Of a stretch of DNA of 51,903 nucleotides, positions 933 through 31,211 are shown in pieces. The notes beneath the pieces are model-generated. The model did no database searches. It saw only the letters and a list, made by a program, of their open reading frames with translations, and was not told the DNA's origin. Both the position numbers and the translations under genes were made by a program. This stretch comes from an uncultured Candidatus Sericytochromatia bacterium. Its GTDB lineage: Bacteria > Cyanobacteriota > Sericytochromatia > UBA7694. Where the stretch lies: positions 1 to 51,903 of the forward strand of contig CAYFGW010000002.1 in NCBI GenBank assembly GCA_964342365.1, read 5' to 3'. Numbering within the stretch: position 1 is the first letter of the stretch; the number at the start of each line of letters is the position of its first letter.

Positions 933-1298
933 ATGGGTACAGATTATGAACGAGGGAACTTCATGAAAGATTGTCAGGCCAAACATTTTGAAAGCCAACG
1001 CTACACCGCGTGCTGGTGCCCTGAATGTGATCAGGTAAAAGTCAAATGCGGCAACGTTTTACTGCCCTTTAAAACCAAACAGGTAGAACCTTTTTTAACG
1101 TTTTTAGAAGATATGTACAAGCGTCAAATCAGCGAGCAAAAAAAGAAAAGCGTTCAGTTTAAGTTTGCGGAACTGTCTTTTACCTTCATGGCCGACGAAC
1201 TGGAAGATCTGACTGATTTACTTCGCATGGTCAAAATAGAAATCCAGCGCGAACAACTTGAGGCGCTGTTTTATTCAGGAGAAAGACATATCGCATGA
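933..1298 (+). CDS. Hypothetical small Cys-rich protein, translationally coupled to flavodoxin
   Basis: 121-aa ORF (alternative ATG at 963). The N-terminus carries C-x13-CWCPEC-x7-C (MKDCQAKHFESQRYTACWCPECDQVKVKC). Its stop overlaps the flavodoxin start as ATGA at 1295..1298. I recognise no family. Confidence 0.5.
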   Translation: MGTDYERGNFMKDCQAKHFESQRYTACWCPECDQVKVKCGNVLLPFKTKQVEPFLTFLEDMYKRQISEQKKKSVQFKFAELSFTFMADELEDLTDLLRMVKIEIQREQLEALFYSGERHIA

Positions 1299-6278: not shown

Positions 6279-7779
6279 ACGCAACCTACTTCTGTTGAGC
6301 CTTGTTATTATCAGCTTTTGCCGGGGGCTGTGTTCACCGGTATTGGCCATTTCGCGAACGGATCAGACGCTAACCCTCACCCTACAAGAAGCGGTCTTAA
6401 TGGCCCTCGAAAACAATGAGAGCCTCAGGTTTGAACGTCAAACCCCTGCGATCGCCGCAGAGCGCCTGAAAGAGCAAGAGGCGGTGTTTGATCCCAATCT
6501 GGTGGTCGAAAGTCAAATAAGTGCCGAAAACGCGCAGCGTTTGTTGGGGGCTTCTACAGAGTTTCTGGATATTTTTTCCACGGCCCAGGATTACAGCCTG
6601 GGACTGGAAAAAACCTTTGCCACCGGTAGTCAGCTCAGTTTAAGTGTGGCCACTAACGCCATCAATCGCAGTCTGGCCAACGGCAGCAGCAATCAGCAGG
6701 TGTCTCGTCTGGGTTTGAGTTTTACCCAGGCCCTTTTACAGGGAAGAGACCCGGCGGTTAATACAGCCCTGATTCGCGAGGCGGAGCTAGAAACCCAGCT
6801 GGTGAGCCACAATCTGCGAGGATTCGCTGAAGCCCTGGTGGCCAGCACCGAAAACGCCTTCTGGGACTATTTACTGGCCGGACAACAGCTTAAAATGCGT
6901 GAACTGGCGTTACAACTCACCCAACAAGAATTAAAAAACACCCGTGAACGCATTGCGGTAGGGCGGGTTGCGGGTATTGAAGAAGTAACCTTACAAACCG
7001 AAGTGGGGCTTCGACAGCAAGAGGTGATCACCGCGCGAGGAAATCAGCGCCAGCGCGAACTGGAACTGCTGCGTTTGCTCAATCCGTCTTCTGAGCAGCA
7101 CAACTGGTCAGACTACACCCTACGCCTGACAGAACCTGTAGCCGTGCCTGAGGTGCAACTGGATGTGCTGCCCCAACATATCCGTCTGGCGCTTCAGCAG
7201 CGTCCTGAATTAAAAGAAGCTCAAACCCTGGCTGAGCAAAGAAAACTGACGGTCGTGAGAACTCGTGACGGTCTGCTGCCCGTCCTGGACGTGTTTTTGC
7301 TGCTGGGTAAAACCGGTTATGCTGAATCTTTTCTGGGGTCTATTGGCAACCTGACGGGCAACGGCTTTGATTTTGCCACAGGATTTCGCTTTGCCTATCC
7401 GCTGGGAGCCCGCGCCGAAGAAGCCCGTTACGCCACGGCACAATTACAGGCGGAACAGCAAACCGCCGCTATTGAAAACCTGAAGCAGCAAATTGCGCTG
7501 GATTTACACCGGGGATATTTACAGATCACCCTGGCCCGGGAACAAATCGCCGCCGTCAAGTCTACCCGGATTTTACAACAAACCCGCTTCAACGCGGAAC
7601 AGGAGCGTTACCGGGTAGGTCGCACGAGCGCGTTTCAGCTCGTGCTAGTTCAGCGCGATTTGTTAAATGCTCAGATTCAAGAAGCAGAAGCCCTGATCAA
7701 TTATCTCAAGGCCCTCACGAATTTTTACCGCTTTGAGGGCACTCTCTTAAAGCGACACGGCATTACCAGCATTCAATAA
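6271..7779 (+). CDS. TolC-family outer membrane efflux protein
   Basis: 502 aa with a signal peptide (LLLLSLVIISFCRGLCSPVLA). The LTLQEAVLMALENNESLR start is typical of OMF proteins, and the helical repeat is duplicated. It overlaps the pump gene by 8 nt. Confidence 0.85.
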   Translation: MYKRNLLLLSLVIISFCRGLCSPVLAISRTDQTLTLTLQEAVLMALENNESLRFERQTPAIAAERLKEQEAVFDPNLVVESQISAENAQRLLGASTEFLDIFSTAQDYSLGLEKTFATGSQLSLSVATNAINRSLANGSSNQQVSRLGLSFTQALLQGRDPAVNTALIREAELETQLVSHNLRGFAEALVASTENAFWDYLLAGQQLKMRELALQLTQQELKNTRERIAVGRVAGIEEVTLQTEVGLRQQEVITARGNQRQRELELLRLLNPSSEQHNWSDYTLRLTEPVAVPEVQLDVLPQHIRLALQQRPELKEAQTLAEQRKLTVVRTRDGLLPVLDVFLLLGKTGYAESFLGSIGNLTGNGFDFATGFRFAYPLGARAEEARYATAQLQAEQQTAAIENLKQQIALDLHRGYLQITLAREQIAAVKSTRILQQTRFNAEQERYRVGRTSAFQLVLVQRDLLNAQIQEAEALINYLKALTNFYRFEGTLLKRHGITSIQ

Positions 7780-9501: not shown

Positions 9502-9643
9502 AGGGTGAAATAATTATTAATCACAGTTTAACACTTTGTATCATTTTCGTTGCGAGATCGTCTGTAATCAAAGAACAATCGTCAAACGCTCGAAAAATGA
9601 ACGGATCCTGTGCTAAGATTTGAAAAAACATCGGGCTTTCGCC

Positions 9644-10555
9644 ATGAAAATAGTAATTAAGCGCGGAAAAATTGTGCCCTTTGAGGAGTTGCCTCCTCAT
9701 TCGATTGCCTTAGACGGCTATGTGCAGGGTCCTGCCATTGATGTGGCTCAGCAAAAGTATAGCTTTGACCACCATGCAGGCTGTATTCGGCTGGTCACAA
9801 AGGCAACGTGTGCACAGGTTTTGGACGCACTCATTCTGGGACTTAAACCCGGAAATATGACGGTATATTTAAACGATATTGACGCAGACACGGTGCTGGC
9901 CACCTGGCTGCTGAAACATCCCACATGCATTAAAAATCCCCGGGTGCGCAATCTGGTGGAAGACGTGGCCAATGTGGATGCTCACGGGCCCTCTTACTTT
10001 TCCTATGTAAGAGATTCAGAACTCTGTCAGCGCTTTTTTAAAGGGGCCATGGAGCCGGAATGCCGCTGTCGCCGCGACAACGATTACGCCACGGCGGATC
10101 TTTATCAACTGTTGTTTGCCTGTTTAAAACGCACCGACAAGCTGATTTTTCACAATAAGCGCTACGCTATCCCCCAATACCCCCGCACCCGCACCTGTCG
10201 CTATGAGATCACCCATCAGGGCTCCGGATGGGTCATGACCTATAGCCCTGAACGGGTATTTGGTTCTCTTTACCGCGACGGTTATTCCAAAGTGGTTTCT
10301 TTTCATGAGTTGGAAGTGGTCAACGAAAACGGTGAAATGGAGCGTTCCTTTTCGTACACCATTGCCAAGCAATCCGACTTAATCAAAGACTTTAATATTC
10401 CCGCGATTTTGAAGCATCTGGATCATATTGAACCGGGCTGGGGTGGAGGAAGCAGCATTGGAGGGGCTCCCCGACGCCCCAACGGATCCCGCAGCTATTT
10501 GCCTCCGGATAAAGTCTTTGAAATTATTGAGAGCTTTTTGCAACGGCAACGCTGA
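9644..10555 (+). CDS. Hypothetical protein with His/Asp motifs (possible metal-dependent hydrolase)
   Basis: The track ORF starts at a TTG (9620), and the first ATG is at 9644. Motifs read by eye are SFDHHAG, NDIDADT, NVDAHGP and a C-terminal GWGGGSSIGGAPR. I recognise no family with confidence. Confidence 0.5.
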   Translation: MKIVIKRGKIVPFEELPPHSIALDGYVQGPAIDVAQQKYSFDHHAGCIRLVTKATCAQVLDALILGLKPGNMTVYLNDIDADTVLATWLLKHPTCIKNPRVRNLVEDVANVDAHGPSYFSYVRDSELCQRFFKGAMEPECRCRRDNDYATADLYQLLFACLKRTDKLIFHNKRYAIPQYPRTRTCRYEITHQGSGWVMTYSPERVFGSLYRDGYSKVVSFHELEVVNENGEMERSFSYTIAKQSDLIKDFNIPAILKHLDHIEPGWGGGSSIGGAPRRPNGSRSYLPPDKVFEIIESFLQRQR

Positions 10556-10634
10556 TTTGAAGGCTTTCACATTGTGGGCAGACCGCAAAGTGTGCTAGAT
10601 TATGTAAGCTTTCTAAGTATTCAGAAGGCATTCA

Positions 10635-10706
10635 GGCGATGTGGCCAAGTGGTAAGGCAGAGCTCTGCAAAAGCTTTATTCGCCGGTTCGAGTCCGGCCA
10701 TCGCCT
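10635..10706 (+). tRNA. tRNA-Cys (anticodon GCA)
   Basis: Cloverleaf folded by hand. Acceptor stem GGCGATG/CATCGCC; D arm GCC-AAGTGGTAA-GGC; anticodon stem GAGCT/AGCTT with loop CTGCAAA (GCA); T arm GCCGG-TTCGAGT-CCGGC. CCA is not encoded. Confidence 0.9.
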
Positions 10707-10721
10707 CTTTCTTTTGCTAAA

Positions 10722-12101
10722 ATGATTCCCATGTCAGCCTCTCTTTTAGCGCACTCCACCCGACAACTCCACCTCAGCGATCTTTTACAATTGCTCCCCT
10801 GGGTACCCGGTCACCAGGTGTGCGATATTGGAGCGGGCCGGGGCGAACTGGCCTTTCGTCTGGCAGAATATGGCTTTAGCGTGACCGCTCTGGACGTGGA
10901 TAAATCCGCCGTGGACACCGCACGCCAGCGTTTTGCCCATCTGGAATCTTTAAGTTTTCTACACCAGGATATTCGCGGGTTTCGCATGCAGCGAGAAAGC
11001 TACGGGCTTATTCTCTGCCTGAACGTGTTTCCTTTTATTCCCAACGGCGAGCGGGCCCGGATTATTGGCAGACTCAAAGCGGCTCTTAAACCGGGAGGAA
11101 TTTTCATTTGTTCAGGACTCCAGCAAAAGGACGCCTGGGCCAGCGAAAAAAAAGCCCGCACCAGCAATCAAATTTCAGCACGGCCCACGGGAACCTTTGG
11201 TGCGGACGAGTGGCAAAAACGCTTTCACGATTGGAACACCCTCTGGGCATTCGAAGGCCGAGTCAAGGTACGCAACCTGGATATGGAAGCCCCCCATGAT
11301 ATGACACAGCGCATTCTGCAAAAGCCCTTTGGCTCCCTTCCAAAGGCCGTGAAGTCTGCACAAAAAAGACTCGGCGTTCGCCCGGCGCTGGACATGCCCC
11401 GCGCGGTCTTTGAGGCCACGGACTTTTTGGAACTTTCTTCGGCCACCGTCAGAAACGTACAGCAGGATCATTTTCTGCTGCGCCTCCAGCAAGACACTCC
11501 TTTGCATGTGTATACCGAAGAAATATCACTGGCAGATGATGAAACGGACCCCGCACTGATCTCAGACTTAAAGCGGTTGTTGCAGCGTATTTCAGGACAG
11601 CGCCTGAAACTCAAACTGGGATTTTACGGTCACCAGCAGGGTTTCTTACAGGCCTTATTGCCCACGGAAGAGGCCCTGGAACACGTAAAAACCCGCATTC
11701 GTCGTTTAAAAAAAGAGCTTTTATGCCACCTGACGCTGGAACATCTGCCTTTTTTTGTGTCTCCGCCGGCCTGGGACATCACAGAACCGGTGTTTCTAAA
11801 ACACGTAGCAGAGGAAGCCGATTGCACGCTGGGACTGAGCCTGCAGGCTATTTACACCAACGCCACCGCTTTTGGCATGAGCCCCACAGAATACCTGTCT
11901 CATTTCCCTGAAGACCGCGTGGTGAGTTTGCACCTGGACCTGAGCACAGAACAATGGCAACAAAAACATATTCACCAGCTCATTCAGGAAATTTTTGCCC
12001 GCTTTGACCTGTCAGAGCTCACCTACGGCTCTCATATTTCTCAGGCCACCTATCAACAGTTTATGCTGCCTCTGGGCCAGCAATTGAAAGCCCTGCCATG
12101 A
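10722..12101 (+). CDS. Fusion protein: class I SAM-dependent methyltransferase (N-terminal) + degenerate DUF692/MNIO-like TIM-barrel domain (C-terminal)
   Basis: 459 aa. The N-terminal domain has motif I VCDIGAGRGELAFRLAEYGFSVTALDVD, plus LILCLNVFPFI and LKPGGIFICS. From ~residue 215 the sequence is collinear with the DUF692 consensus as I remember it: RLGVRPAL.., DFLEL, PLHV..ISL, LLPTEEALEHVKTRIRRLKKELLCHLTLEH, ITEPVFLKHVAEEADCTLGLSLQAIYTNATAFGMSPTEYLSHFPEDRVVSLHL. Several metal-ligand motifs appear to be substituted. Confidence 0.5.
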   Translation: MIPMSASLLAHSTRQLHLSDLLQLLPWVPGHQVCDIGAGRGELAFRLAEYGFSVTALDVDKSAVDTARQRFAHLESLSFLHQDIRGFRMQRESYGLILCLNVFPFIPNGERARIIGRLKAALKPGGIFICSGLQQKDAWASEKKARTSNQISARPTGTFGADEWQKRFHDWNTLWAFEGRVKVRNLDMEAPHDMTQRILQKPFGSLPKAVKSAQKRLGVRPALDMPRAVFEATDFLELSSATVRNVQQDHFLLRLQQDTPLHVYTEEISLADDETDPALISDLKRLLQRISGQRLKLKLGFYGHQQGFLQALLPTEEALEHVKTRIRRLKKELLCHLTLEHLPFFVSPPAWDITEPVFLKHVAEEADCTLGLSLQAIYTNATAFGMSPTEYLSHFPEDRVVSLHLDLSTEQWQQKHIHQLIQEIFARFDLSELTYGSHISQATYQQFMLPLGQQLKALP

Positions 12102-12111
12102 GTGAGTTGCC

Positions 12112-12846
12112 ATGAGTTTAAAACACTATCAACAGGCCTGGCGCAACGTCTTACAAAACGAACACCTGATTCCTGAGCAGCTTACGGAGACAGAACGCTT
12201 ACACCTGGAAAACTGGCAGGCCCACCTCCCCCAACAACAGCACGTGTTTAATACCATCAGAGAACATTTAATGACGCGCCTGCCCGTGAGTTTACGGAGC
12301 TTGCTACCCGACAGCTTTTTAAAACTTGTTTTGGCAGATTTTATTCGCCAAAATCATTCCTTTGAGCTGCTGCTGCACTTTGTGTCTCAGCGCCCCTCTC
12401 CGGTGCCTCACTTTGAAGACGTGTGTCGTTACGAAATCGCCTTGAAGAATTTGACCTTTTACCAACTGCCCACACCTTTTGCTCAGGCCGAAGGCCCCGT
12501 TCTGGCCAGATGGGCCCGGGTGCTTTCACTGGGTCCCCACTTCCCCCTTGTGCTCACCGCGCTACAACAGGGGCGAGCCGTGGAGGATTTACAGGAAACA
12601 CCGCTCCAAAACTATCTTTTGCTACGGGAGTTTAAAGGCCCCCGTTTATTGCCGTTGCCCCCTCTGGAGGCCCGCTGCCTGGAGGCGTGTACGGGAAAAA
12701 AAACCTGGGGAAATATTGTGGATAAAGTGCTTGCGGATCATCCTTCTCCGCACAGTGCCAGAGAAAATTTGCTGCGAGCAGAAACCCACTACTTACAAGA
12801 GGGCATTCTGTTAAAAAGCGCTTTGCCAGGAACGACTGCTTCTTAA
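12112..12846 (+). CDS. DUF2063-like protein (MbnC/BufC-type partner of DUF692 enzymes), tentative
   Basis: 244 aa, starting 10 nt after the previous gene. The N-terminal L.HYQQAW..VL pattern and the internal EDVCRYEIALKN resemble the DUF2063 N-terminal helical domain. DUF692-DUF2063 adjacency is a recurrent arrangement. Confidence 0.4.
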   Translation: MSLKHYQQAWRNVLQNEHLIPEQLTETERLHLENWQAHLPQQQHVFNTIREHLMTRLPVSLRSLLPDSFLKLVLADFIRQNHSFELLLHFVSQRPSPVPHFEDVCRYEIALKNLTFYQLPTPFAQAEGPVLARWARVLSLGPHFPLVLTALQQGRAVEDLQETPLQNYLLLREFKGPRLLPLPPLEARCLEACTGKKTWGNIVDKVLADHPSPHSARENLLRAETHYLQEGILLKSALPGTTAS

Positions 12847-13061
12847 GCTTCACGCAATTGAGACAAAAGCTGCCGAGAGGCTTCCGGCAATTCTGCCAGC
12901 AAATGCTCTACCTGAGAAATCATGTCCTCTGATTTGATGGCACGGGTCAGGGCCTCCACGTCTGCCCCTGATAACTGAAGCTGTGCGCGCAGGGCGTCAA
13001 AATCTTCAGTGGATAAAGAAGGAAGTGGAGAGACAGGGAGTTCAAGAGGACCAGTAACCAT
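12843..13061 (-). CDS. Hypothetical small acidic helical protein
   Basis: 72-aa ORF downstream of HMG-CoA lyase on the same strand. Its stop overlaps the convergent DUF2063-like stop within CTTAAG. I recognise no family. Confidence 0.35.
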   Translation of the reverse strand: MVTGPLELPVSPLPSLSTEDFDALRAQLQLSGADVEALTRAIKSEDMISQVEHLLAELPEASRQLLSQLREA

Positions 13062-14498: not shown

Positions 14499-15098
14499 TC
14501 AGGAGGCTGCTTCCGCAGATTTTCTTTCCTTTAAAACGGCCGCAGGGGGCGTAAATGTCACCGGCTGCTTGAAAAAGGGATCGCGGTTCCAGAGAGCCAT
14601 ACACACAGACGTCACACTGGCCAGCGCCAGCCAGGGAATAAGAGTCATATGCAGCCATGCGGCTTTTCTATCGCCGGATTTAAGGGCCAGGGTTAACGAG
14701 GTGAGATTCACGCCGAGATCCGCCACGGTTAGCATGGCAGCCCCAATGGGAGAACGCAGCCCAAAATATACGGCACCAAAACTACAGTAAATCAGGGTGG
14801 CCAGGGTTTTACACCCCAAATACGCAGTGCGATAAGCGCTCGGCTTTTGTTTTGACACATGCAGCATGCCCACAATATCCAGTACGATGTTGATCAACCA
14901 TACGGGGCCAAACACATATCCCGGGGGTGCAAAGCGAGGTTGCTTTAGACGCTTGTAAAAGGCCCGGTCTTTTTGAGACACCTCTTGCTGTTTTTTCACG
15001 GATTCTGTGGCCACCGCACTCACAATTTGCATGCCCAGAAAAAGTAAGACCCCGTGATACCATTTCCATCGGGGAGAGGTGTTCCCTATTTTCATCAC
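14499..15098 (-). CDS. TspO/MBR-family membrane protein (tentative)
   Basis: 199 aa and multi-TM. LKQPRFAPPGYVFGPVWLINIVL matches the TspO P-x-PP-x-FGPVW signature, and the C-terminal LIPWLALASV...LWN resembles the last TspO helix. Confidence 0.55.
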   Translation of the reverse strand: MMKIGNTSPRWKWYHGVLLFLGMQIVSAVATESVKKQQEVSQKDRAFYKRLKQPRFAPPGYVFGPVWLINIVLDIVGMLHVSKQKPSAYRTAYLGCKTLATLIYCSFGAVYFGLRSPIGAAMLTVADLGVNLTSLTLALKSGDRKAAWLHMTLIPWLALASVTSVCMALWNRDPFFKQPVTFTPPAAVLKERKSAEAAS

Positions 15099-17972: not shown

Positions 17973-18040
17973 ACAATCACCTCTGCCTGTAGTTTATCAG
18001 GTCAGAGTTTCGCTGAAAAACTTCGCTGAAAAACAAGGCA

Positions 18041-18070
18041 CAAAAAAAGAAGGCCGTTTAAGGCCTTCTT
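18041..18070 (-). terminator. Rho-independent terminator (minus strand) after the lipocalin-like gene
   Basis: 9-bp stem AAGAAGGCC (18047..18055) / GGCCTTCTT (18062..18070) with a 6-nt loop. The plus-strand A-run 18042..18048 becomes a U-tract on the minus strand. Confidence 0.75.
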
Positions 18071-18105
18071 CCTCATATTTCAGGCGGGTGATTTACCCTG
18101 GGTAT

Positions 18106-18972
18106 TTACTCACCCATGTCCTGTTTTTTTTCTACCTGCTGCTGGTGCTGAGGGTTGTCCAACACGCGCTTTTTTTCTTCCAGCTTCTTTTTGAGGTGAA
18201 TATGTAAAGGCACTTCAGCATGGTCATCCTGGGTCACTTCAATAAGTGAATCCACGTCATAGCCCTGCTTTTTCATGCGCTTTACAATACCTTCGTATTG
18301 CTTGGGTTCCATGGTGGGCGTGCGGCTCATGATCCAGAGGTGCTTCTTATTGGGTGAACCGAGCACCACATGGTCATAATCATCACCTTTTTCGAGGATC
18401 ACGTAGTCCACTTCCAGCGGTCCAAAGAGCTTCAGGCGCATGTGGGTGTTGTTGTCATCCAGGATACGAGCGACCCCTTCTTTTTTGACGCTTTTGCCGT
18501 CAAGAGAACCCACGGCGGCCTCATACTCTACTTTATAGCGATCTTTTTCTTCAAGGGTAAAGGTTTTGCGGCTACCCACATGATTCTTTTCTGCGTGATA
18601 GGGCAGATGGGCAATTTCAAACCAGCGGCCCGCAAAGCGCTCCTGACTCACAGAAGGTGCCGTGCGCAGATCCGCAATCTGCTTTTTCACCTTTTTCTCA
18701 CGCAGCTTTACAGCGGCAAAAATACCGATGCCCGCCAGCACCAGACCGCCCAGGGTGGCTACAGCAGGTAGCACCACACTGCGTTCAATGCGTGTAGGAG
18801 CTTTAGACTTGATTTGACTCAAATCGGGGAACTGCAGGTTTTGCAGCTGCTTTTGCTGGGCTTTAATGGTTTTCTGAGCGCGTTTCTGCAAACGGCCCAG
18901 GTTTTTTTCAATGTCTTTTTCAATACTTTTAACGTGCTTGATGGCTTCATCAAGGGATTTATAGGTTTTCAT
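18106..18972 (-). CDS. Membrane-anchored lipocalin-domain protein (Blc-like core)
   Basis: 288 aa. Architecture is an N-terminal coiled coil, a TM helix (VVLPAVATLGGLVLAGIGIFAAV), a lipocalin signature (FAGRWFEIAHLPY) and a charged C-terminal tail. Confidence 0.65.
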   Translation of the reverse strand: MKTYKSLDEAIKHVKSIEKDIEKNLGRLQKRAQKTIKAQQKQLQNLQFPDLSQIKSKAPTRIERSVVLPAVATLGGLVLAGIGIFAAVKLREKKVKKQIADLRTAPSVSQERFAGRWFEIAHLPYHAEKNHVGSRKTFTLEEKDRYKVEYEAAVGSLDGKSVKKEGVARILDDNNTHMRLKLFGPLEVDYVILEKGDDYDHVVLGSPNKKHLWIMSRTPTMEPKQYEGIVKRMKKQGYDVDSLIEVTQDDHAEVPLHIHLKKKLEEKKRVLDNPQHQQQVEKKQDMGE

Positions 18973-19117
18973 GCAATATTCTCCAATATCTTGTGTTTAC
19001 TGAATTATGGCAAAAAAAACGTGCCTTTTGTATAGAGGCCCCGTTAAAATCCCGTCAAACTTCGCTTTCAATACGTTGAACATTTCTGTACTCTTATACT
19101 CACCAGCCACGGTGGCT

Positions 19118-19702
19118 TTAATTTCCCCTGGCAAGTGCCATGCGAACAAGCATATCGATTTGATACTCAAGACCCCCGTAAATATTAGCGGTGTAATCTT
19201 CAAATTCACCAGGATTAATTTTTTGATCACCATCGTAATCGAACTTCATCATGGATTGACTTTGAACTTCGTCGAGAGAGATAAACCCATCTTTGTTTCG
19301 ATCATCGCGATTGAAAAAAGTTCTGAATTCTTTTTGAAATCGCTCGGCAGAAAGATGCTCCCCCAACACCAGATCTTTTTGCTCCATGAAAGAGTTTCGA
19401 TCAACGCTTCCATCACTGATAGTGCTTTTCAATTGGGGATAATGAGCCTGATATTCGGAAGTCTCCAAATAGGTATTTCTGCTAACATCAAGACGGACAA
19501 AAACGGCTTTAGCTATGTCTCTACGTAGATTTTCAATGCTGTAAATACGTTGACTTTGTGGTCTTTGCTGGTTTTGGGAGAACAAAGCTGAAGCCCGTTG
19601 AGGCATGCGCGTCATTTGTGGAGAAATGGGGGTGTTGGTACGACATGCCCCTAAAACGAGTAGTGAGGCAGAGAAGATAATAGCTTGTAAGTGTTTTTTC
19701 AT
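19118..19702 (-). CDS. EF-hand calcium-binding lipoprotein
   Basis: ATG 19702 gives MKKHLQAIIFSASLLVLGAC, a signal peptide with lipobox. Two EF-hand loops are present: DRNKDGFISLDE and DYDGDQKINPGE. Confidence 0.65.
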   Translation of the reverse strand: MKKHLQAIIFSASLLVLGACRTNTPISPQMTRMPQRASALFSQNQQRPQSQRIYSIENLRRDIAKAVFVRLDVSRNTYLETSEYQAHYPQLKSTISDGSVDRNSFMEQKDLVLGEHLSAERFQKEFRTFFNRDDRNKDGFISLDEVQSQSMMKFDYDGDQKINPGEFEDYTANIYGGLEYQIDMLVRMALARGN

Positions 19703-19743
19703 AGTTTTACTTTCATTATATATTAACAACGGGTCGGAAGAGT

Positions 19744-20541
19744 TTATTCTTCCATATTCAAAACGGCAATACCTGCGCCAAGAGCTGCACCGAGACCTGC
19801 AGCCACAGGAGAAAAGCTTTGCAAACGATCGGAAATCATGGTGCTGGCCATGGCACTTGCAATTGCCATACCTCCTCCACCCAGAAGGGCGGCACCTGCA
19901 ACATTTTTAACGTTGTTGAGTTCTTTGTCTTCAAAGTCACTTGAAATGAGAGCGACACCAGCACCTACGGCGGCTCCCATGATGGTACCTTTGGCAGAAG
20001 GCCCGTGGATATAATTGGTAAGCATCGTGCTACTGATGGATTGTGCTGCAGCGGTCACACCACCACCAATGAGTGTACCAGCAGCCATATTTTTAAGAGA
20101 ATTTGTTGTTTCACTGCCAGTCTCTATGCCGAGTAATCCAACACCTGCACCAATGGCTGCTCCAATGCCCACACTCGTCATTCCGGGGCCAACACCGCGT
20201 TCCAGAAACATGCTCTTGCTTAAAGAAGCAGCCAGTGCAGAAGCTGATCCGCCAATTAAAGTACCACCCGCTATTTTTTTGATAACTCCCGTGCCCGAAG
20301 TTAGTTGAGAACCCTGGTATACGTCACTTGAGAGACTTGAAGCTTTTTGAGGCGTTGAAATGGGAGCAGATGATTGGGGAGCAGATGATTGGGGAGAAGG
20401 TTTAGTGGAAAAGGCTGGTCCGGTAATTACCACGCCACTCATGCTGTCGTTATATGTGCCTAATTTCATATTTTTAACTCTCTTTGTTACTCTGTTATTT
20501 TTGTTATAGGTATCCATTATGGGAAACACGGTTAAGGGCAA
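19744..20541 (-). CDS. Gly/Ala-rich membrane protein with three ~60-aa tandem glycine-zipper repeats
   Basis: 265-aa ORF whose start is uncertain (alternative MKLGTYN). It has a Ser/Pro-rich linker with PQSSAPQSSAP. Three repeats follow, of the form (I/L/V)K(K/N)(I/M/V)AG(G/A)(T/A)L(I/L)GG...(I/L)G(A)A(I/V/L)GAG(V/I)(G/A)(L/V)L. Confidence 0.55.
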   Translation of the reverse strand: MPLTVFPIMDTYNKNNRVTKRVKNMKLGTYNDSMSGVVITGPAFSTKPSPQSSAPQSSAPISTPQKASSLSSDVYQGSQLTSGTGVIKKIAGGTLIGGSASALAASLSKSMFLERGVGPGMTSVGIGAAIGAGVGLLGIETGSETTNSLKNMAAGTLIGGGVTAAAQSISSTMLTNYIHGPSAKGTIMGAAVGAGVALISSDFEDKELNNVKNVAGAALLGGGGMAIASAMASTMISDRLQSFSPVAAGLGAALGAGIAVLNMEE

Positions 20542-20623
20542 GATAATTTTAAGTAAAAGCTATCTCAAACCAGTTTTCGAACTATCTGACGCAAAAAGCT
20601 TATTTTTAACTGTCAAAACGTTA

Positions 20624-21097
20624 TCAAACCCAGCTGTATTCTAATTCGAATAGCTTTTTATTTTGATAGTTTGTATAACTGTCCGGCGACAGCCTGAAAT
20701 TCAGAGATGGGAACAAAATGTCTTCCGGCTCAATTATTTGAATTTCAAAGTATTGAGAGTGTGGTTCTTTTACCAAAAAAACTTTTTCTATTTCACAACC
20801 TAGAAGCGGTTGATTATCTGGCTCCAACCAAGAAGTAAATACTTTTGAATCATCGGGCACAAAAAAATGATTAACACAAAAATTTATTTGAATCTCATAA
20901 GACTCTTTCCTGCGTGAATTCATAACTCTTAAGTACTTCAAAGATAAAGAAGCTGAATTATCAAATCGATCAACTAAATCGAATATCATAGTTTCTGTTT
21001 CTAAGTCTGATTCAGAAGCTAATAAATATTGCTTTTGCACGGTCATACCCTGAAAGTTTCGCAAAATATTATTGAAGAAACTCACTTTCATATCCAC
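20624..21097 (-). CDS. Hypothetical protein (AT-rich islet; paralogue of 21142..21669)
   Basis: 157 aa in markedly AT-rich DNA. It shares a collinear pattern with its neighbour: ..ASLSLKYLRVMNSRRKESYEIQINF..F.P and LFELEYSW. Confidence 0.5.
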   Translation of the reverse strand: MDMKVSFFNNILRNFQGMTVQKQYLLASESDLETETMIFDLVDRFDNSASLSLKYLRVMNSRRKESYEIQINFCVNHFFVPDDSKVFTSWLEPDNQPLLGCEIEKVFLVKEPHSQYFEIQIIEPEDILFPSLNFRLSPDSYTNYQNKKLFELEYSWV

Positions 21098-21141
21098 CTC
21101 GTAGCCCCCTTAAAACTCAGCCATTGAAAGAAAAATAAGGA

Positions 21142-21669
21142 TTAATCATCGCGATCCAAATACCAATCATAATCTAAACTGGGAAAAGCTGAGCTAGGCT
21201 CGTTTTTTCCAAAGTCTGACAAATCCAATTCAAACAAAATAGAGTTATAACCTGGTGGAATTTTATCAGTCCCATCAGTACTCAAATCTATTCCTACAAT
21301 TAAAGAATCAACCTTACCAAAGTGTGTATCTGTTTCTAAAAAGGTAAAATACTCAAAAGTAAAACCCTCTAGCATATTATCCTGTAAAACCGGGATAAGG
21401 TTTGATTTCTCTGGCTTAAAGATATGAATATTTCCAAAAACAGTTATTTCATATTCGTAACCATGTTTGGTCTTTCCCTTATTATTTGACATTCTGATGT
21501 TTAGGGACGCAATGTCGCCATTATCACGAACAACATTAAAAACATGTTCTTCTGTTTGATTTTCAGTTATAGAATGAAAAATATAATAGCTTTTTATTTT
21601 CATTCCAACACAAGTCTCCAAAAGAGAAGCTAATATACTTGGTTGATTCACTTCATCAAGCCTCAGCAA
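21142..21669 (-). CDS. Hypothetical protein (AT-rich islet; paralogue of 20624..21097)
   Basis: 175 aa. IASLNIRMSNNKGKTKHGYEYEITVF..IFKP and LFELDLSD...LDYDWY align with the neighbouring ORF. Confidence 0.5.
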   Translation of the reverse strand: MLRLDEVNQPSILASLLETCVGMKIKSYYIFHSITENQTEEHVFNVVRDNGDIASLNIRMSNNKGKTKHGYEYEITVFGNIHIFKPEKSNLIPVLQDNMLEGFTFEYFTFLETDTHFGKVDSLIVGIDLSTDGTDKIPPGYNSILFELDLSDFGKNEPSSAFPSLDYDWYLDRDD

Positions 21670-22039
21670 AATCTGGATGTTGCCTTAATTTATTCACAGC
21701 GCAATCAGCAGCCCGCTGAATCAGCGGCAATAACTCCTCAAAGCTAAAACACTCACGCTCATAGATATCTTCATCCATTCCTACAACTCTCACAACAAAA
21801 CGCCCTGATGCCAGCAAGCTTTCCAACGAATGATGATCGGGATATTCGTTTTTGTAGCGATACCAATCCACCCATAATTGTATATCACCATAATATTCAA
21901 CCATGAGCATATCCTCTCCCAAAGTGATTTCCAAATTTCTCATGGATATAGACGGAATTTTTTTCAATGAATGTCGAAGAAGCCAGTTAATATGTGACAC
22001 CTTTCCAGGATAAAAATTTACTTTCGCTACAAATGACAT
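21656..22039 (-). CDS. Hypothetical protein (AT-rich islet)
   Basis: ATG 22039 (MSFVAKVNFYPGK...) is preceded by GAGGTGAG. The longer track ORF (to 22126) would read through the GC-rich hairpin element. Confidence 0.45.
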   Translation of the reverse strand: MSFVAKVNFYPGKVSHINWLLRHSLKKIPSISMRNLEITLGEDMLMVEYYGDIQLWVDWYRYKNEYPDHHSLESLLASGRFVVRVVGMDEDIYERECFSFEELLPLIQRAADCAVNKLRQHPDFAEA

Positions 22040-22220: not shown

Positions 22221-24038
22221 TCAAATAAAATCATCCGCATCCCGCCGCACCTCTTTACGGGCCAGCAAATGAAACTTCTGAATCCGCTGCAACACCCGCC
22301 GCGACACACTGGACAGCGGCAAATGATACAGTCTTTTATCATACTTATGAGCCAATTCAAACAAATAAGCCTCAGGCTTCTGACGGGCAAAGTAAAGAAT
22401 GTCCGGCCGCGGACTCAAATAAATCGCCTGACGAATCATATGCTCTTTGCGCAAATCCTCATCCACGTCCAGATCGTCAATATCCAGTTTGTGCTCCGGT
22501 GGCAAAGCGGGCTTAAAAGCCATGAGTGCGCCGTACTTGGCCTGAATAATTTCATGACTCACCGGATGCATCAGCGGATTGGAGGCATAAAAAGCAATGT
22601 CTGACTCGTTATGGTGCTCCGCCGACAGCGACAGCGCCCAGGGATACTTTTCCTGAGCGAGGTCTTCATCAAACATCAAAATCCAGCAGCCAATGGCCAG
22701 TTGTTCTTTTTTAAACTCTTTCACATAGAGCTTGTTTAGATGGCGATTGCGCAGGGTTTCACGCATGTCCAGACCGTCTAAAAGACTGCCGGTAAATTCG
22801 TGGGTGTACACCTTTTGAAAATGAGGATCGTCCGCCAGTTTATCGCCCAGACGATCAATGAAGTTTTCTAAGACAATATCTTCAGGAATATGAGAAAAAA
22901 AGCCAAAGTAAAACCACAGCGGCTGATACCCGTCGGGCAAATCTTCTTTTTTCTTTCGCACAATCAGCTGCTGCCAGTCCCGCTGTCCCTGAAGCATGGG
23001 CACGGGCAAGCGTCGCATCAGCTCAATCACGCGACCGTCCAGCGCAAAGCGTTTGTCGTGGGGGTCAAATTCAATTTCGGGCAAATCGTCTTCGTCTTCA
23101 TAATGGTACGCCCGGGCCAGATCCAGCAGTTCCAGGGCATAGTCATCGCCCAGCGTCTGCTTGGCCGCCAGCACCAGATTAAACAAGTCCGGAGACACCC
23201 GTTTGTCCGTGACCGACAGCTTATAAGCGTACTGCAGAAAATTACGCACCTCACGGGGAGAAAAGTCCGCTTCCTTTAAGGATTCCGCATTGCGAGCGGA
23301 CTGGGCCAGCTGCCGCAGCAGAGTATCACGGTGATAGCCCGTATTAAAGCGTCGTCCCAGCTCATAATGAAATACAAAATAGGGAATTTCTTCCAGGAGC
23401 GCTTCACGGGCCTTGGGGCCCACCTTGGCCAGAAAGGGTGCGTCCACATGCTCCGTTTCGTGCTCAAAAATCTGCTCTGAGCCCGCTTCCAAATGGGATT
23501 TAATCGACTCCCAGTGGCCCATACCGCATACAAAAAGCACCCGCTCATAACGCGCGCTGAGTTCTTTTAAACGGGCCGCCATGTGCCGCTCACGCCGATC
23601 GTCTTTTTTGGCATTGCCCGGTGCGGGTTTCAAGTGAGGGTGTACCGTCTCATAAAAGGCCGCAAGCCCTACACTTTCAATGGCTTCATCATCAGGAATG
23701 GCAAAGGCTTCTTCCTGTAAATTGTAATTTTCCACCGCCAGGTCAATCAGGGCCGCCGGAATCTGATTCTCTCTGGCCAGGCGCAATCCCTCAATCATGG
23801 GGTCAGAGGGAAAAACGGGCAAATAGGTGAGCCGCTGATCGGGCTGTCGCAGACAGAGTAAGCTCAACCGGGGCAAGCGCGCAATGCCCTGCAAAAGGTC
23901 TGAGTAGTAAATATCCGGCAGTTCCAGCGCCACCACATCCGGCGTTAACTCACCAAAAGCTTCACGCACCTGGCGGGCAAACTGGATGCGATTATGAAAC
24001 GCAGGGATGCAGTGAATATTTTTGTAGCGCAGGGCCAT
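22221..24038 (-). CDS. Large uncharacterised protein with an N-terminal TraB/PrgY/GumN (TIKI-superfamily)-like domain; possibly DUF5682-related
   Basis: 605 aa. The N-terminal ~185 aa carry the TraB-like motif order: IHCIPAFHNR (GTxH position), VVALELPD (Glu), RRERHMAARL, and RVLFVCGMGHWESI (GxGH). The remaining ~420 aa are unrecognised. The start overlaps the AAA gene stop (ATGA). Confidence 0.55.
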   Translation of the reverse strand: MALRYKNIHCIPAFHNRIQFARQVREAFGELTPDVVALELPDIYYSDLLQGIARLPRLSLLCLRQPDQRLTYLPVFPSDPMIEGLRLARENQIPAALIDLAVENYNLQEEAFAIPDDEAIESVGLAAFYETVHPHLKPAPGNAKKDDRRERHMAARLKELSARYERVLFVCGMGHWESIKSHLEAGSEQIFEHETEHVDAPFLAKVGPKAREALLEEIPYFVFHYELGRRFNTGYHRDTLLRQLAQSARNAESLKEADFSPREVRNFLQYAYKLSVTDKRVSPDLFNLVLAAKQTLGDDYALELLDLARAYHYEDEDDLPEIEFDPHDKRFALDGRVIELMRRLPVPMLQGQRDWQQLIVRKKKEDLPDGYQPLWFYFGFFSHIPEDIVLENFIDRLGDKLADDPHFQKVYTHEFTGSLLDGLDMRETLRNRHLNKLYVKEFKKEQLAIGCWILMFDEDLAQEKYPWALSLSAEHHNESDIAFYASNPLMHPVSHEIIQAKYGALMAFKPALPPEHKLDIDDLDVDEDLRKEHMIRQAIYLSPRPDILYFARQKPEAYLFELAHKYDKRLYHLPLSSVSRRVLQRIQKFHLLARKEVRRDADDFI

Positions 24039-25309
24039 CAGGCTTGATCGTCAGCAGCGTCGGAATCTTCATCCAGGACGTCATCCTCTAAGCGACTGTC
24101 TTCTGCTTCACTGGCTTTGCGACGCTTCTCCCATTCGGCAATATTTAAGCTGTCGGGAATATCTTTAGCACTCAAATCAGGCAAAGATTTACCGTCGTCC
24201 TTTGCTTTTTCGGTCTGGGCGGCTTCAAAAGCCTCTAATTCTTCGGGGGTGATTTCAATAAACTCAATCTCAAACCCCTGGGCCCGCAGCGCGTCTGCGA
24301 GCTTGCTGTCTAAGGTAAAGTCCACGTCATCTACATCAAAATCTTCCAGATCCAACTCAATTTCTAACTCCTCTTCCGTGTCCGCCTCCTCAGAAGCAGA
24401 CGTCTCCTCAGAAACAGGAGTAGGATTGCCGCCCAACAAAAGCACGTTGGGAAGTTTCAGAGTGGGAGGTTTGGGCTTATTCACACACTTTTTCAGGAAG
24501 AGTTGCTCCGCTTCCTTGCCCAGAATCTGAACCAGAGACCGGGAAATGGCTTCTAAGGTGGGCGTCTGATTCAGGTGAATATGTTTAATGGCGTAGCGGG
24601 CAACGTTCACGCCATCACGGGTGCTATAGGCTTTTTTGTCCGCGTGACTTTGCTGTAAGAACTCGCCCACCCACTTTAAAATATCTTCAGGGGCCTCAGG
24701 CAAGTTCACCCGCAAAATTTCCATTTCTTCTTCCGCAGGGGGAAAACCCACTTCAATTTGAGGCTGTAAACGAGATTGGATATAGTCAGGCACGTCAAAG
24801 GTACTGGCGTCGTCATTCATGGTCACCGCCAGACGGAAATCGGGGTGCGCGGGAATTTTAATACCCGCAATCAGACTTTCCACGTAGCGCCGGGTATCCA
24901 TTAAGGGAGCCAACGAAGCCCAGGATTTTTCGCCCATACGATTGCCCTCATCCAGAATACAAATGCCTCCCTTGAGCATGGCGGTCACAAGGGGACTGGC
25001 GTGGTAGCGAATATTCTGCGTTTCTCCGATCACCGGTGTGACCAGTAAATCCTCAGGACGAGTATCCACGGTACATTGCAAAATGTAGACCTGCTCGGTG
25101 TAGTCTCTGGCCACGGCGTAAGCCAGGGTGGTTTTACCAATACCGGGCTTGCCAATAATGCGCGGGCTCATGGGCAAATCTTCGTTAGAAAGAATGAGCC
25201 AGGCCGCCTGCAGCTGACGTTTGACTTCCTGATGACCAATCCAGCGTACGTCCATCCGTGTGGGTTCTGCCATCACCAGATCAACGCCTTTGACTTTCAT
25301 AATTTCCAT
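24038..25309 (-). CDS. AAA+ ATPase, AAA_5 / MoxR-CbbQ-NorQ-like, with a hyper-acidic C-terminal tail
   Basis: 423 aa. Walker A is IIGKPGIGKTTLAYAVA and Walker B is GICILDEGNRM. DFRLAVTMND and QSRLQPQIEVGFPP match the sensor/Arg-finger region pattern of the AAA_5 family. By my count, 46 of the last 129 residues are Asp/Glu. Confidence 0.85.
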   Translation of the reverse strand: MEIMKVKGVDLVMAEPTRMDVRWIGHQEVKRQLQAAWLILSNEDLPMSPRIIGKPGIGKTTLAYAVARDYTEQVYILQCTVDTRPEDLLVTPVIGETQNIRYHASPLVTAMLKGGICILDEGNRMGEKSWASLAPLMDTRRYVESLIAGIKIPAHPDFRLAVTMNDDASTFDVPDYIQSRLQPQIEVGFPPAEEEMEILRVNLPEAPEDILKWVGEFLQQSHADKKAYSTRDGVNVARYAIKHIHLNQTPTLEAISRSLVQILGKEAEQLFLKKCVNKPKPPTLKLPNVLLLGGNPTPVSEETSASEEADTEEELEIELDLEDFDVDDVDFTLDSKLADALRAQGFEIEFIEITPEELEAFEAAQTEKAKDDGKSLPDLSAKDIPDSLNIAEWEKRRKASEAEDSRLEDDVLDEDSDAADDQA

Positions 25310-29899: not shown

Positions 29900-30076
29900 C
29901 ACAAGGTTTAAAATAAGTCGCTCAGCCCTTTTATACAATTTTTATGCAAAATATTTAGCCCTTTGCGATATTTTTATGAGTCATTGGGTATAACACTAAT
30001 AAGCAAACAAACTTCTCCAAATTTGCCTCTTGTTTGCCAACGTTAACATAGTTAACGGATTATCAACGGGTGATAC

Positions 30077-30113
30077 GGACAGAAGAAAAAGGTCATTCTT
30101 CTGTCCTTTTTTT
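30077..30113 (+). terminator. Rho-independent terminator (ends the two-component operon; lies 31 nt before the speH-speE start)
   Basis: Perfect 10-bp stem GGACAGAAGA (30077..30086) / TCTTCTGTCC (30097..30106), followed by T7 (30107..30113). Confidence 0.8.
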
Positions 30114-30143
30114 CATGGCAACAACCCGTGCTATGCTGAAGTT

Positions 30144-31211
30144 ATGAAAGCCTTTGGAAGCCAAATCATTGCGGAGTTTGTTCACTGCTCGGCCCCCCTG
30201 CTGCACCGTCAAAAAGACATAGAAGCCCTGCTGACTGAGGGCATTCAAAAATTTAAGCTGGAACTCAAATCTATAAATAGTTACCAGTTTGAACCCGCTG
30301 GCGTCACCGCCATTGCCATTATTGGCGCTTCTCACGTGGCGGTACACACCTATCCCGAAGCGGGGCATTTGTCTCTGGATATTTTCACCTGTTCTCCGGG
30401 GGCACCGGGACCCATGCAATTGATGCATTTTTTAAAAGAGCGCCTGCAACCGGAATACGTACGTCACAAGGTGCTTTCCCGGGGACGCAGCGTGCACGTG
30501 GATCACAAAGACTATATTACCGATCTTACCCACAGCGGTTTTAATACCCAATACCAGATTGAAAAGGAACGCATCAATAAGCGTACCGCCTATCAACATC
30601 TGATGATTATTGAAAATAAAACCTTTGGGGCCATGATGTTTCTGGACAACCAGCTTCAGATCGCTGAATCTGATGCCCACCTGTATAATCAGGCCCTGGT
30701 AGCCCCCCTGAAAAACCGCCGTCGAGTGTTGATCTTAGGCGGCGGAGACGGAGGCGTTTTGAACCATTTGTTGGCCACAGGCGCACAAGAAGTGGTGATG
30801 GTAGATATTGACGCTGAAGTGGTGGCTGCCGCTCAAAAACACTTGCCCGAGGTGTGCGGCACCGCTTTTGCAGATTCCCGAAGCGAGATCGTTATTGAAG
30901 AAGCGAGATCGTACCTGAAAGCCTGTGATTCGCAGTGTTTTGACAGCGTCATTTACGATCTCACCATGGAGCCTGAAGCCGTGGCCAGAGAAAATGGCGA
31001 ACAGTTTTTTGAAGACCTCTTTGACGGCATTGAGTACGTGTTACGTCCCGGAGGTTTCATTTCACTTCAGGTGGGTTCCCATTTTGATACCCGTGCACAG
31101 CAGCGGGCCCACCGTTTGCTCAACAGTCGCTTTAAAGTACCCCACTTTGAAACTGTGTTTATTCCATCCTTTTGTGAAGGCTGGGTGTTTGGTCACGCCC
31201 TGAAAACTTAA
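30144..31211 (+). CDS. Bifunctional fusion: pyruvoyl S-adenosylmethionine decarboxylase (SpeH/SpeD-type) + spermidine synthase-like aminopropyltransferase
   Basis: The track ORF begins at a TTG (30030) upstream of the terminator, so ATG 30144 (MKAFGSQIIAEF) is preferred. The N-terminal part has GVTAIAIIGASHVAVHTYPEAGHLSLDIFTC, the AdoMetDC proenzyme motif. The C-terminal part has FGAMMFLDNQLQIAESDAHLYNQALV, VLILGGGDGGVLNHLL and VVMVDIDAEVV, matching spermidine synthase. Confidence 0.8.
   Translation: MKAFGSQIIAEFVHCSAPLLHRQKDIEALLTEGIQKFKLELKSINSYQFEPAGVTAIAIIGASHVAVHTYPEAGHLSLDIFTCSPGAPGPMQLMHFLKERLQPEYVRHKVLSRGRSVHVDHKDYITDLTHSGFNTQYQIEKERINKRTAYQHLMIIENKTFGAMMFLDNQLQIAESDAHLYNQALVAPLKNRRRVLILGGGDGGVLNHLLATGAQEVVMVDIDAEVVAAAQKHLPEVCGTAFADSRSEIVIEEARSYLKACDSQCFDSVIYDLTMEPEAVARENGEQFFEDLFDGIEYVLRPGGFISLQVGSHFDTRAQQRAHRLLNSRFKVPHFETVFIPSFCEGWVFGHALKT

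Follow-up and report, generated by a model that had tools for sequence, protein, structure and literature searches.

A methyltransferase fused to a ligand-poor MNIO barrel and linked to a tRNA-Cys gene in Sericytochromatia

What does an iron oxidase barrel do once most of its iron ligands have been replaced and it has become joined to a methyltransferase? The question is raised by a gene on the forward strand of a 51,903-nucleotide stretch of DNA (the window; contig CAYFGW010000002.1 of assembly GCA_964342365.1, positions 1 to 51,903) from an uncultured Candidatus Sericytochromatia bacterium. Its product combines a class I S-adenosylmethionine (SAM) methyltransferase with a barrel of the DUF692 family, to which the multinuclear non-haem iron oxidases (MNIOs) belong, and a partner gene follows directly. 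The MNIO enzyme family is young and expanding quickly, and the non-photosynthetic Sericytochromatia are a poorly known sister lineage of the photosynthetic cyanobacteria. Every characterised MNIO found in the literature is an active iron oxidase that works with a partner on the precursor of a ribosomally synthesised, post-translationally modified peptide (RiPP), and the literature search returned no report of a methyltransferase-MNIO fusion, a ligand-poor MNIO or a tRNA-linked MNIO.

The answer that we hold with slightly better than even confidence is that methyl transfer is the sole catalysis of the module, and that the ligand-poor barrel and the partner serve as a substrate-recognition scaffold, a lineage-specific descendant of a BufB/HvfB-type MNIO and its partner. 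Three features were not encountered in that literature: the fusion itself, its invariant physical link to a tRNA-Cys gene, and a natural series of barrels under selection whose ligand sets range from complete to almost empty, of which those at the empty end would count as pseudo-MNIOs. The fusion and its neighbours represent a conserved and unexplored module in Sericytochromatia.

Domain architecture and metal site

The fusion gene spans 10722..12101 (+) and encodes 459 residues from the ATG at 10722. The true start is likely the ATG at 10731 (456 residues), since homologues and the database copy P0001 (456 residues) begin there. The methyltransferase domain (10722..11336 (+), residues ~1-205) carries motif I as DIGAGRG at residues 35-41 and matches Pfam Methyltransf_25, 11, 12 and 31; the Methyltransf_25 match covers residues 33-126 at an E-value of 1.4e-16 (61.3 bits against Pfam's 27). 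A GxGxG motif I, an acidic D83 and matches to Rossmann-like folds place it among the class I SAM methyltransferases. The second domain (11364..12098 (+), residues ~215-459) is a (beta/alpha)8 barrel. Residues 232-425 align with profile positions 20-222 of 263 in PF05114 (MbnB_TglH_ChrH), at an E-value of 7.6e-23 and with 81.5 bits, where the gathering score is 25. The NCBIfam equivalog models score 75 bits for BufB and 72.5 bits for HvfB, which is far below their cut-offs of 310 and 360 (NF050167, NF003818). The Pfam match, the triosephosphate isomerase (TIM) barrel fold and the partner gene immediately downstream are the features of the MNIO/DUF692 family that the protein shares.

Structural modelling gives the same picture. 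An AlphaFold2 model computed from an input alignment of 29 family sequences reached a predicted local distance difference test (pLDDT) score of 90.7 and a predicted template modelling (pTM) score of 0.89, and displays two parts, a methyltransferase fold of seven strands and, after it, a complete beta/alpha barrel of eight strands. In Foldseek searches of the PDB, TglH (8hci_B; E 2.7e-13, target-based TM 0.70) and 3bww, a DUF692 structure (TM 0.77), were the best fold matches; lower matches were generic small methyltransferases such as TehB, Slr1183 and PMT. A first-pass annotation, prepared from the nucleotide sequence and its open reading frames (ORFs), had described a 459-residue ORF with a class I methyltransferase N-domain and a DUF692-type C-domain, and both descriptions hold.

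The metal site is where the protein departs from canonical MNIOs. In TglH, iron is bound by nine residues: H71, H107, E151, D184, N187, H216, D229, H231 and E258 (PMC10880893). Their equivalents in the fusion are Y264, K298, E340, S373, A376 and H404 for the first six, a deletion of the loop that carries D229 and H231, and G436 for the last. Two of the nine canonical ligands are therefore kept (E340 and H404). Ligand positions were transferred through the family alignment, in which the homologue P0017 anchors to TglH and 3bww with all nine aligned, and a separate HMMER alignment to 3bww gives the same substitutions. The first-pass annotation had anticipated a lost or changed metal site, and the exchanges that it read as EN to EH, DVNN to SLQA and HxAG to HLDL are confirmed by the TglH and 3bww alignments. 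Its fourth exchange, HG to HV, lies two residues out of register, as the canonical histidine aligns with Y264. Neither of the two outcomes that the annotation had named as refuting it occurred, given the clear PF05114 match and the loss of most ligands.

Recurrence, ligand loss and selection

The fusion is not peculiar to the window. The proposed survey of other genomes yielded 28 further protein clusters at 33-53% identity and 447-488 residues (one is a 361-residue partial), with the partner gene and tRNA-Cys as recurrent companions. Ten genome loci with the fusion all come from metagenome-assembled genomes of Sericytochromatia or Blackallbacteria; a scan of metagenome contigs contributed one further locus only, and this was truncated. 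Among the 28 homologues, all nine ligands are present in P0017 and P0029 only, and the other 26 retain between zero and five. Of the 28 full-length members, 24 lack the Fe3 loop.

Against BufB, the ligand-intact P0017 and P0029 obtain 193 and 208 bits, and against HvfB 178 and 190 bits. Although the BufB cut-off is not reached, these are the best scores of the family for both models and point to an ancestor of the bufferin/HvfB type. In a neighbour-joining tree computed without support values, the two intact members branch from within the degenerate ones, and such a topology suggests several independent losses of the ligands within the fusion family. As intact and degenerate forms share their genomic context, a non-catalytic contribution of barrel and partner is directly testable.

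Conservation is unevenly distributed between the two halves. Mean pairwise identity in the family is 0.56 for the methyltransferase and 0.36 for the barrel, and within the window's own clade the corresponding values are 67-75% and 38-42%, with 41% for the partner; barrel and partner diverge there at an equal rate. The methyltransferase half holds almost all invariant columns, including GxGxG (G37, G39, G41, D83, R85, R91, C99, P107, E110, R113, G116, R117 and K119, among others). The invariant barrel residues E237, D249, R285, R289 and the TEEALE motif do not occupy canonical ligand positions, and the family alignment columns contain no substitute set of conserved polar residues in the barrel. 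The ligand-poor barrel and the partner are nonetheless under purifying selection. In the clade of loci L009-L013, where the ratio of nonsynonymous to synonymous substitution rates (dN/dS) was measurable, it amounts to 0.04-0.10 for the methyltransferase, 0.08-0.13 for a barrel with two of nine ligands and 0.09-0.17 for the partner.

A pseudo-enzyme is favoured by this combination: invariant columns that fall mostly in the methyltransferase, ligands lost in 26 of 28 homologues, no replacement set of polar residues, and purifying selection. Of the options raised in the first-pass annotation, a substrate-binding pseudo-enzyme that directs methylation fits best.

The barrel might instead still be an enzyme, with an altered and smaller metal site or a metal-free chemistry that would give the fusion a new two-step reaction. 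E340 and H404 are kept, a new H341 adjoins E340 in the window clade, and the barrel is complete, confidently modelled and under purifying selection. We nevertheless regard this explanation as unlikely. The kept and new residues are not conserved across ligand-poor members (the H216 position is arginine in most of them, and the E151 position is arginine, threonine, aspartate or glutamine in several), the invariant residues lie away from the ligand positions, and the Fe3 loop is missing from most of the family.

The partner protein and known MNIO systems

The partner gene (12112..12846 (+), 244 residues) starts 10 nt 3' of the fusion and encodes a protein with a winged-helix-like C-terminal end (YLxxGIL). 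It directly follows the fusion in every locus, and stop and start codons often overlap. The window partner has no Pfam or NCBIfam match at E<=1, DUF2063 (PF09836) included, and 16 partner orthologues have no Pfam match at E<=10, again including PF09836. As a control, four BufC proteins from plasmid bufferin operons all match PF09836 at E<=1e-16. A search of the partner profile against the PDB and a direct Pfam search returned only chance-level ETS and ALR matches.

More distant relationships emerged from profile comparisons. Among 1.84 billion representatives, the partner family comprises 35 clusters at E<=1e-10; it is as small as the fusion family, and the partner subfamily is confined to fusion-bearing loci. 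The same profile search retrieved distant relatives, P0073-P0081, which form an intermediate family. The partner family aligns with this family at an hhalign probability of 99.7% (E 3e-25), and the intermediate family aligns with BufC at 96.4%. When partner and intermediate profiles are merged, the match to BufC reaches 94.3% (E 1e-7) over 232 collinear columns at full length; the partner family alone gives only 21.5%. Some intermediate-family members show weak NGO1945_C, PqqD or DUF2063 signals, and in both members checked the gene directly follows a stand-alone canonical MNIO gene. On these profile links to BufC through the intermediate family, the partner is a remote homologue of MNIO partners that combine DUF2063 with a RiPP recognition element (RRE), and it may correspond to the PME-type 2 proteins. 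The gene and its 10-nt spacing were thus described correctly in the first-pass annotation, and its label of "DUF2063-like" survives as remote homology and fails as Pfam membership.

PME-type 2 partners are defined by HHpred or AlphaFold similarity to 3dee (NGO1945) and TglI (PMC12452194). The partner described here shares with them its position directly after the MNIO gene, a length of ~250 residues, the lack of a DUF2063 Pfam signature and a remote DUF2063-RRE relationship, known in this case from sequence profiles. It differs in that its subfamily is restricted to loci with the fusion.

The closest parallel for the whole module is found in the bufferin/HvfB maturases, in which BufB and its DUF2063-RRE partner BufC act with a DUF2282 precursor and DoxX. 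MNIO and partner genes follow one another in the same order, BufB and HvfB are the models that score the ligand-intact fusion members best, and BufC aligns over its full length with the partner superfamily. Unlike those systems, the fusion module has no DUF2282 or other Cys-rich signal-peptide precursor nearby, carries an N-terminal methyltransferase, has lost seven of nine iron ligands in the window protein, includes a partner that PF09836 does not match, and remains well short of the equivalog cut-offs (75 bits for the window protein, where the BufB model requires 310). Bufferin clusters often include DoxX genes. In locus L009, two genes converge on the partner, one for a membrane protein of the DoxX_2 type and one for a regulator of the Rrf2 type (6760..7203 (-) and 7284..7772 (-)), an arrangement repeated in L010-L013. 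A DoxX_2 gene is thereby shared with the bufferin clusters, but it is convergent and paired with the Rrf2 regulator; it might have been left over from the ancestral cluster, or its presence might be coincidental.

Pearlin pathways (tgl and tmo, which yield 3-thia-amino acids) likewise bring together an MNIO, a partner of the RRE type and a methyltransferase that uses SAM. Their parts are a carrier peptide, a peptide aminoacyl-tRNA ligase (PEARL) that uses Cys-tRNA, the MNIO TglH or TmoH, its partner TglI or TmoI and the methyltransferase TmoS (PMC9303977). A connection to Cys-tRNA is shared with the fusion loci, here through the tRNA-Cys gene, as is a small potential carrier peptide near the fusion pair, in this case Cys-free, and the pearlin MNIO TglH is the best structural match of the fusion. 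However, the methyltransferase is a separate protein in pearlin pathways and the MNIO site is lost in most fusion members. General gene lists, namely the Pfam lists of six loci and the scanned ORFs of the window, contained no PEARL/LanB-like gene, protease or transporter. A TmoS-like relative beside a DUF692 gene, sought by comparing the methyltransferase domain with plasmids, was rejected, as only generic methyltransferases were recovered.

A coupling of an MNIO step to SAM-dependent methylation is also known from two other systems. In aminopyruvatide formation, the MNIO step of ApyHI is followed by methylation by ApyS (PMC11117315), and ChrHI is an MNIO complex that uses SAM (PMC10214503). 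The fusion differs from both: ApyS, an MppJ-like C-methyltransferase, is a protein of its own, ChrH lacks a methyltransferase domain although it uses SAM, and the MNIOs of both systems are active iron enzymes with adjacent precursors.

tRNA-Cys linkage, candidate substrates and neighbourhood

A tRNA-Cys gene (anticodon GCA; 10635..10707 (+)), detected by ARAGORN and by the Rfam tRNA model at 67.7 bits, lies in the 166-nt gap upstream of the fusion. It ends 14 nt before the ATG at 10722 and 23 nt before that at 10731. Among informative loci, defined as those with upstream sequence, a same-strand tRNA-Cys lies 14-78 nt upstream of the fusion in 15 of 15 cases (the window and 14 relatives). Genes beyond the tRNA vary by clade and include a 311-residue unknown protein, DapF and DUF4336, among others. 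The tRNA itself is ordinary and has a U73 discriminator. No terminator-like site occurs between it and the fusion ORF, and the tRNA and the two protein genes are probably co-transcribed. Upstream, at 10572..10600 (+), TTGTGG and TAGATT separated by an 18-nt spacer lie ~35 nt before the tRNA and form a candidate promoter recognised by eye, unflagged by a consensus scan. An integrated island at the tRNA was rejected, given that neither a repeat of the tRNA 3' end nor an integrase was detected. A literature search combining Sericytochromatia with tRNA-Cys returned nothing relevant.

The constancy of this linkage raises the possibility that tRNA-Cys itself, or the cysteine on Cys-tRNA(Cys), is the target of the module, for instance through methylation. 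The same-strand arrangement persists despite differing outer flanks, no tRNA was found alongside stand-alone MNIO and partner relatives, and the link deserves attention, given that cysteine is the target of most characterised MNIOs and Cys-tRNA the starting point of pearlin pathways (PMC9303977). Yet fusion and partner are neutral to acidic (isoelectric point (pI) 5-7.8), which argues against an RNA substrate and suggests that the link may be only transcriptional. The Pfam scan gave no RNA-binding domain, the ancestry is one of peptide modification, the tRNA is ordinary, and the association traces to a single ancestral event. Adjacency may simply be explained by a dependence of the genes on the tRNA promoter. 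A precedent for a protein gene that relies on a tRNA promoter is the tRNA-tufB operon of E. coli. A functional role of the tRNA is on balance distinctly unlikely.

No Cys-rich or DUF2282-like precursor ORF adjoins the fusion-partner pair in the window or in the related loci searched, in agreement with the first-pass annotation, which had noted that no Cys-rich ORF flanks the pair. Its broader statement that no precursor is visible holds for Cys-rich candidates; it missed both the tRNA-Cys gene upstream and a conserved Cys-free ORF in the downstream gap. This small acidic ORF (12843..13061 (-), 72 residues, pI 4.3) is convergent with the partner gene, overlaps its stop codon, has no Pfam match and carries a conserved C-terminal motif, LLxxLPxASxxLLxxLxE. 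Homologues of 64-107 residues lie tail-to-tail with the partner gene in L001, L004, L005, L007 and L018, and the family occurs in four of 10 clades; a hidden Markov model built from five seeds recovers the independent L018 copy at an E-value of 3.8e-13. In all-versus-all BLAST comparisons around 15 loci, it was the only conserved small ORF that was neither a shadow frame nor a tRNA translation. Its upstream neighbours on the minus strand differ by clade, and the partner gene is therefore its constant neighbour. The small protein is a candidate fourth component of the module, as substrate, carrier peptide or regulator.

Other small ORFs were considered and discarded. Three in the upstream gap (48, 28 and 26 residues) come from translating over the tRNA gene, and so do the small-ORF families that appeared conserved in all-versus-all BLAST. 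A Cys-rich ORF at 933..1298 (+) was rejected as a precursor, since it lies ~9.4 kb from the pair, belongs to one clade and sits beside a flavodoxin gene. Its protein family (111-129 residues) recurs at L001 4629..4964 and L004 2058..2447, where the L001 copy adjoins FeoAB, and shows a weak DUF6686 similarity (E 7.6e-5, only just below threshold). In the ligand-intact locus L003, a 101-residue ORF with one cysteine (10259..10564 (-)) converges on the partner; it resembles only the first helix of the small-ORF family (PxIK..SxQEIxxxLDxL), stops early and may be a truncated or divergent member.

The small acidic protein also figures in a bolder proposal to which we allow only a slim chance. In it the tRNA-Cys linkage would be functional, and cysteine, either from Cys-tRNA(Cys) or on the small acidic peptide, would be captured in the former cysteine pocket of the barrel and S-methylated by the fused methyltransferase, a pared-down pearlin-like chemistry independent of a PEARL. 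If true, it would be the first MNIO scaffold repurposed for a non-oxidative modification of an amino acid or aminoacyl-tRNA.

The scaffold reading, by comparison, can be told as a sequence of steps. An ancestral peptide-maturase pair of a BufB/HvfB-type MNIO and its partner would have gained an N-terminal class I SAM methyltransferase. In the few ligand-intact relatives, oxidation of a residue by the barrel would presumably precede its methylation by the fused methyltransferase, as in TmoHI/TmoS and ApyHI/ApyS. In the window and most relatives the multinuclear iron site is gone, and barrel and partner would hold the substrate, either a peptide or a small protein, in place for the methyltransferase domain, and methyl transfer from SAM would be the only remaining chemistry. 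Both genes would be transcribed from the tRNA-Cys promoter as one unit, and the best local candidate for the substrate is the small acidic protein whose gene meets that of the partner tail to tail.

Several points weigh against this reading. The small ORF proposed as substrate is Cys-free, convergent and absent beside the pair in six of 10 clades. The RRE-like domain of the partner is indicated by sequence profiles and by weak PqqD and NGO1945_C matches. The neighbour-joining tree behind repeated ligand loss lacks support values, and dN/dS could be measured in one clade (L009-L013), dS being saturated in the clade of the window. Finally, the retained E340 and H404 together with the new H341 might still form a metal site of reduced size in the window protein.

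The methyltransferase might also act on a small molecule in the manner of TehB or UbiG, with barrel and partner as mere structural or regulatory appendages. Its closest matches (TehB, UbiG, PMT, Slr1183 and the heterocyclic toxin methyltransferase of M. tuberculosis) agree with such a role, but they are generic for the fold and fall far below family cut-offs. This explanation leaves unaccounted for the strict conservation and translational coupling of a homologue of peptide-binding partners, as well as the equal evolutionary rate of partner and barrel, and we consider it rather improbable. That the barrel half is a decaying, functionless remnant can hardly be credited: seven of nine catalytic ligands and the Fe3 loop have indeed been lost, but a barrel dN/dS of ~0.1 contradicts decay, as do full-length ORFs in 28 clusters, a complete and confident barrel model and a partner that is kept everywhere.

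Further features were recorded in the surroundings of the module. Directly upstream of tRNA-Cys, the 311-residue ORF (9620..10555 (+)) has no Pfam, NCBIfam or PDB match; its conservation, and that of the Na/Ala symporter beside it, is limited to the clade of the window (L001, L004). Downstream of the fusion pair, three clades carry a tRNA-Leu(GAG)-tRNA-Phe(GAA) pair accompanied by epimerase and acyltransferase genes (L003 11748..12059, L005 3660..3876 and L015 8215..8440), a second tRNA-rich feature near the fusion pair. A TspO/MBR family protein (14499..15098 (-), E 7.6e-16) is encoded among polysaccharide-export genes (GNVR, Poly_export). The stretch 18000..22000 of the window is low in GC (0.38-0.46 against ~0.51) and is followed on the minus strand by a 604-residue protein that Pfam does not match (22221..24038) and an AAA_5 ATPase (24038..25309); the region could have been acquired as an island, or the two genes could form a McrBC-like pair. 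At 30030..31211 (+), a single protein of 393 residues unites S-adenosylmethionine decarboxylase and spermidine synthase domains.

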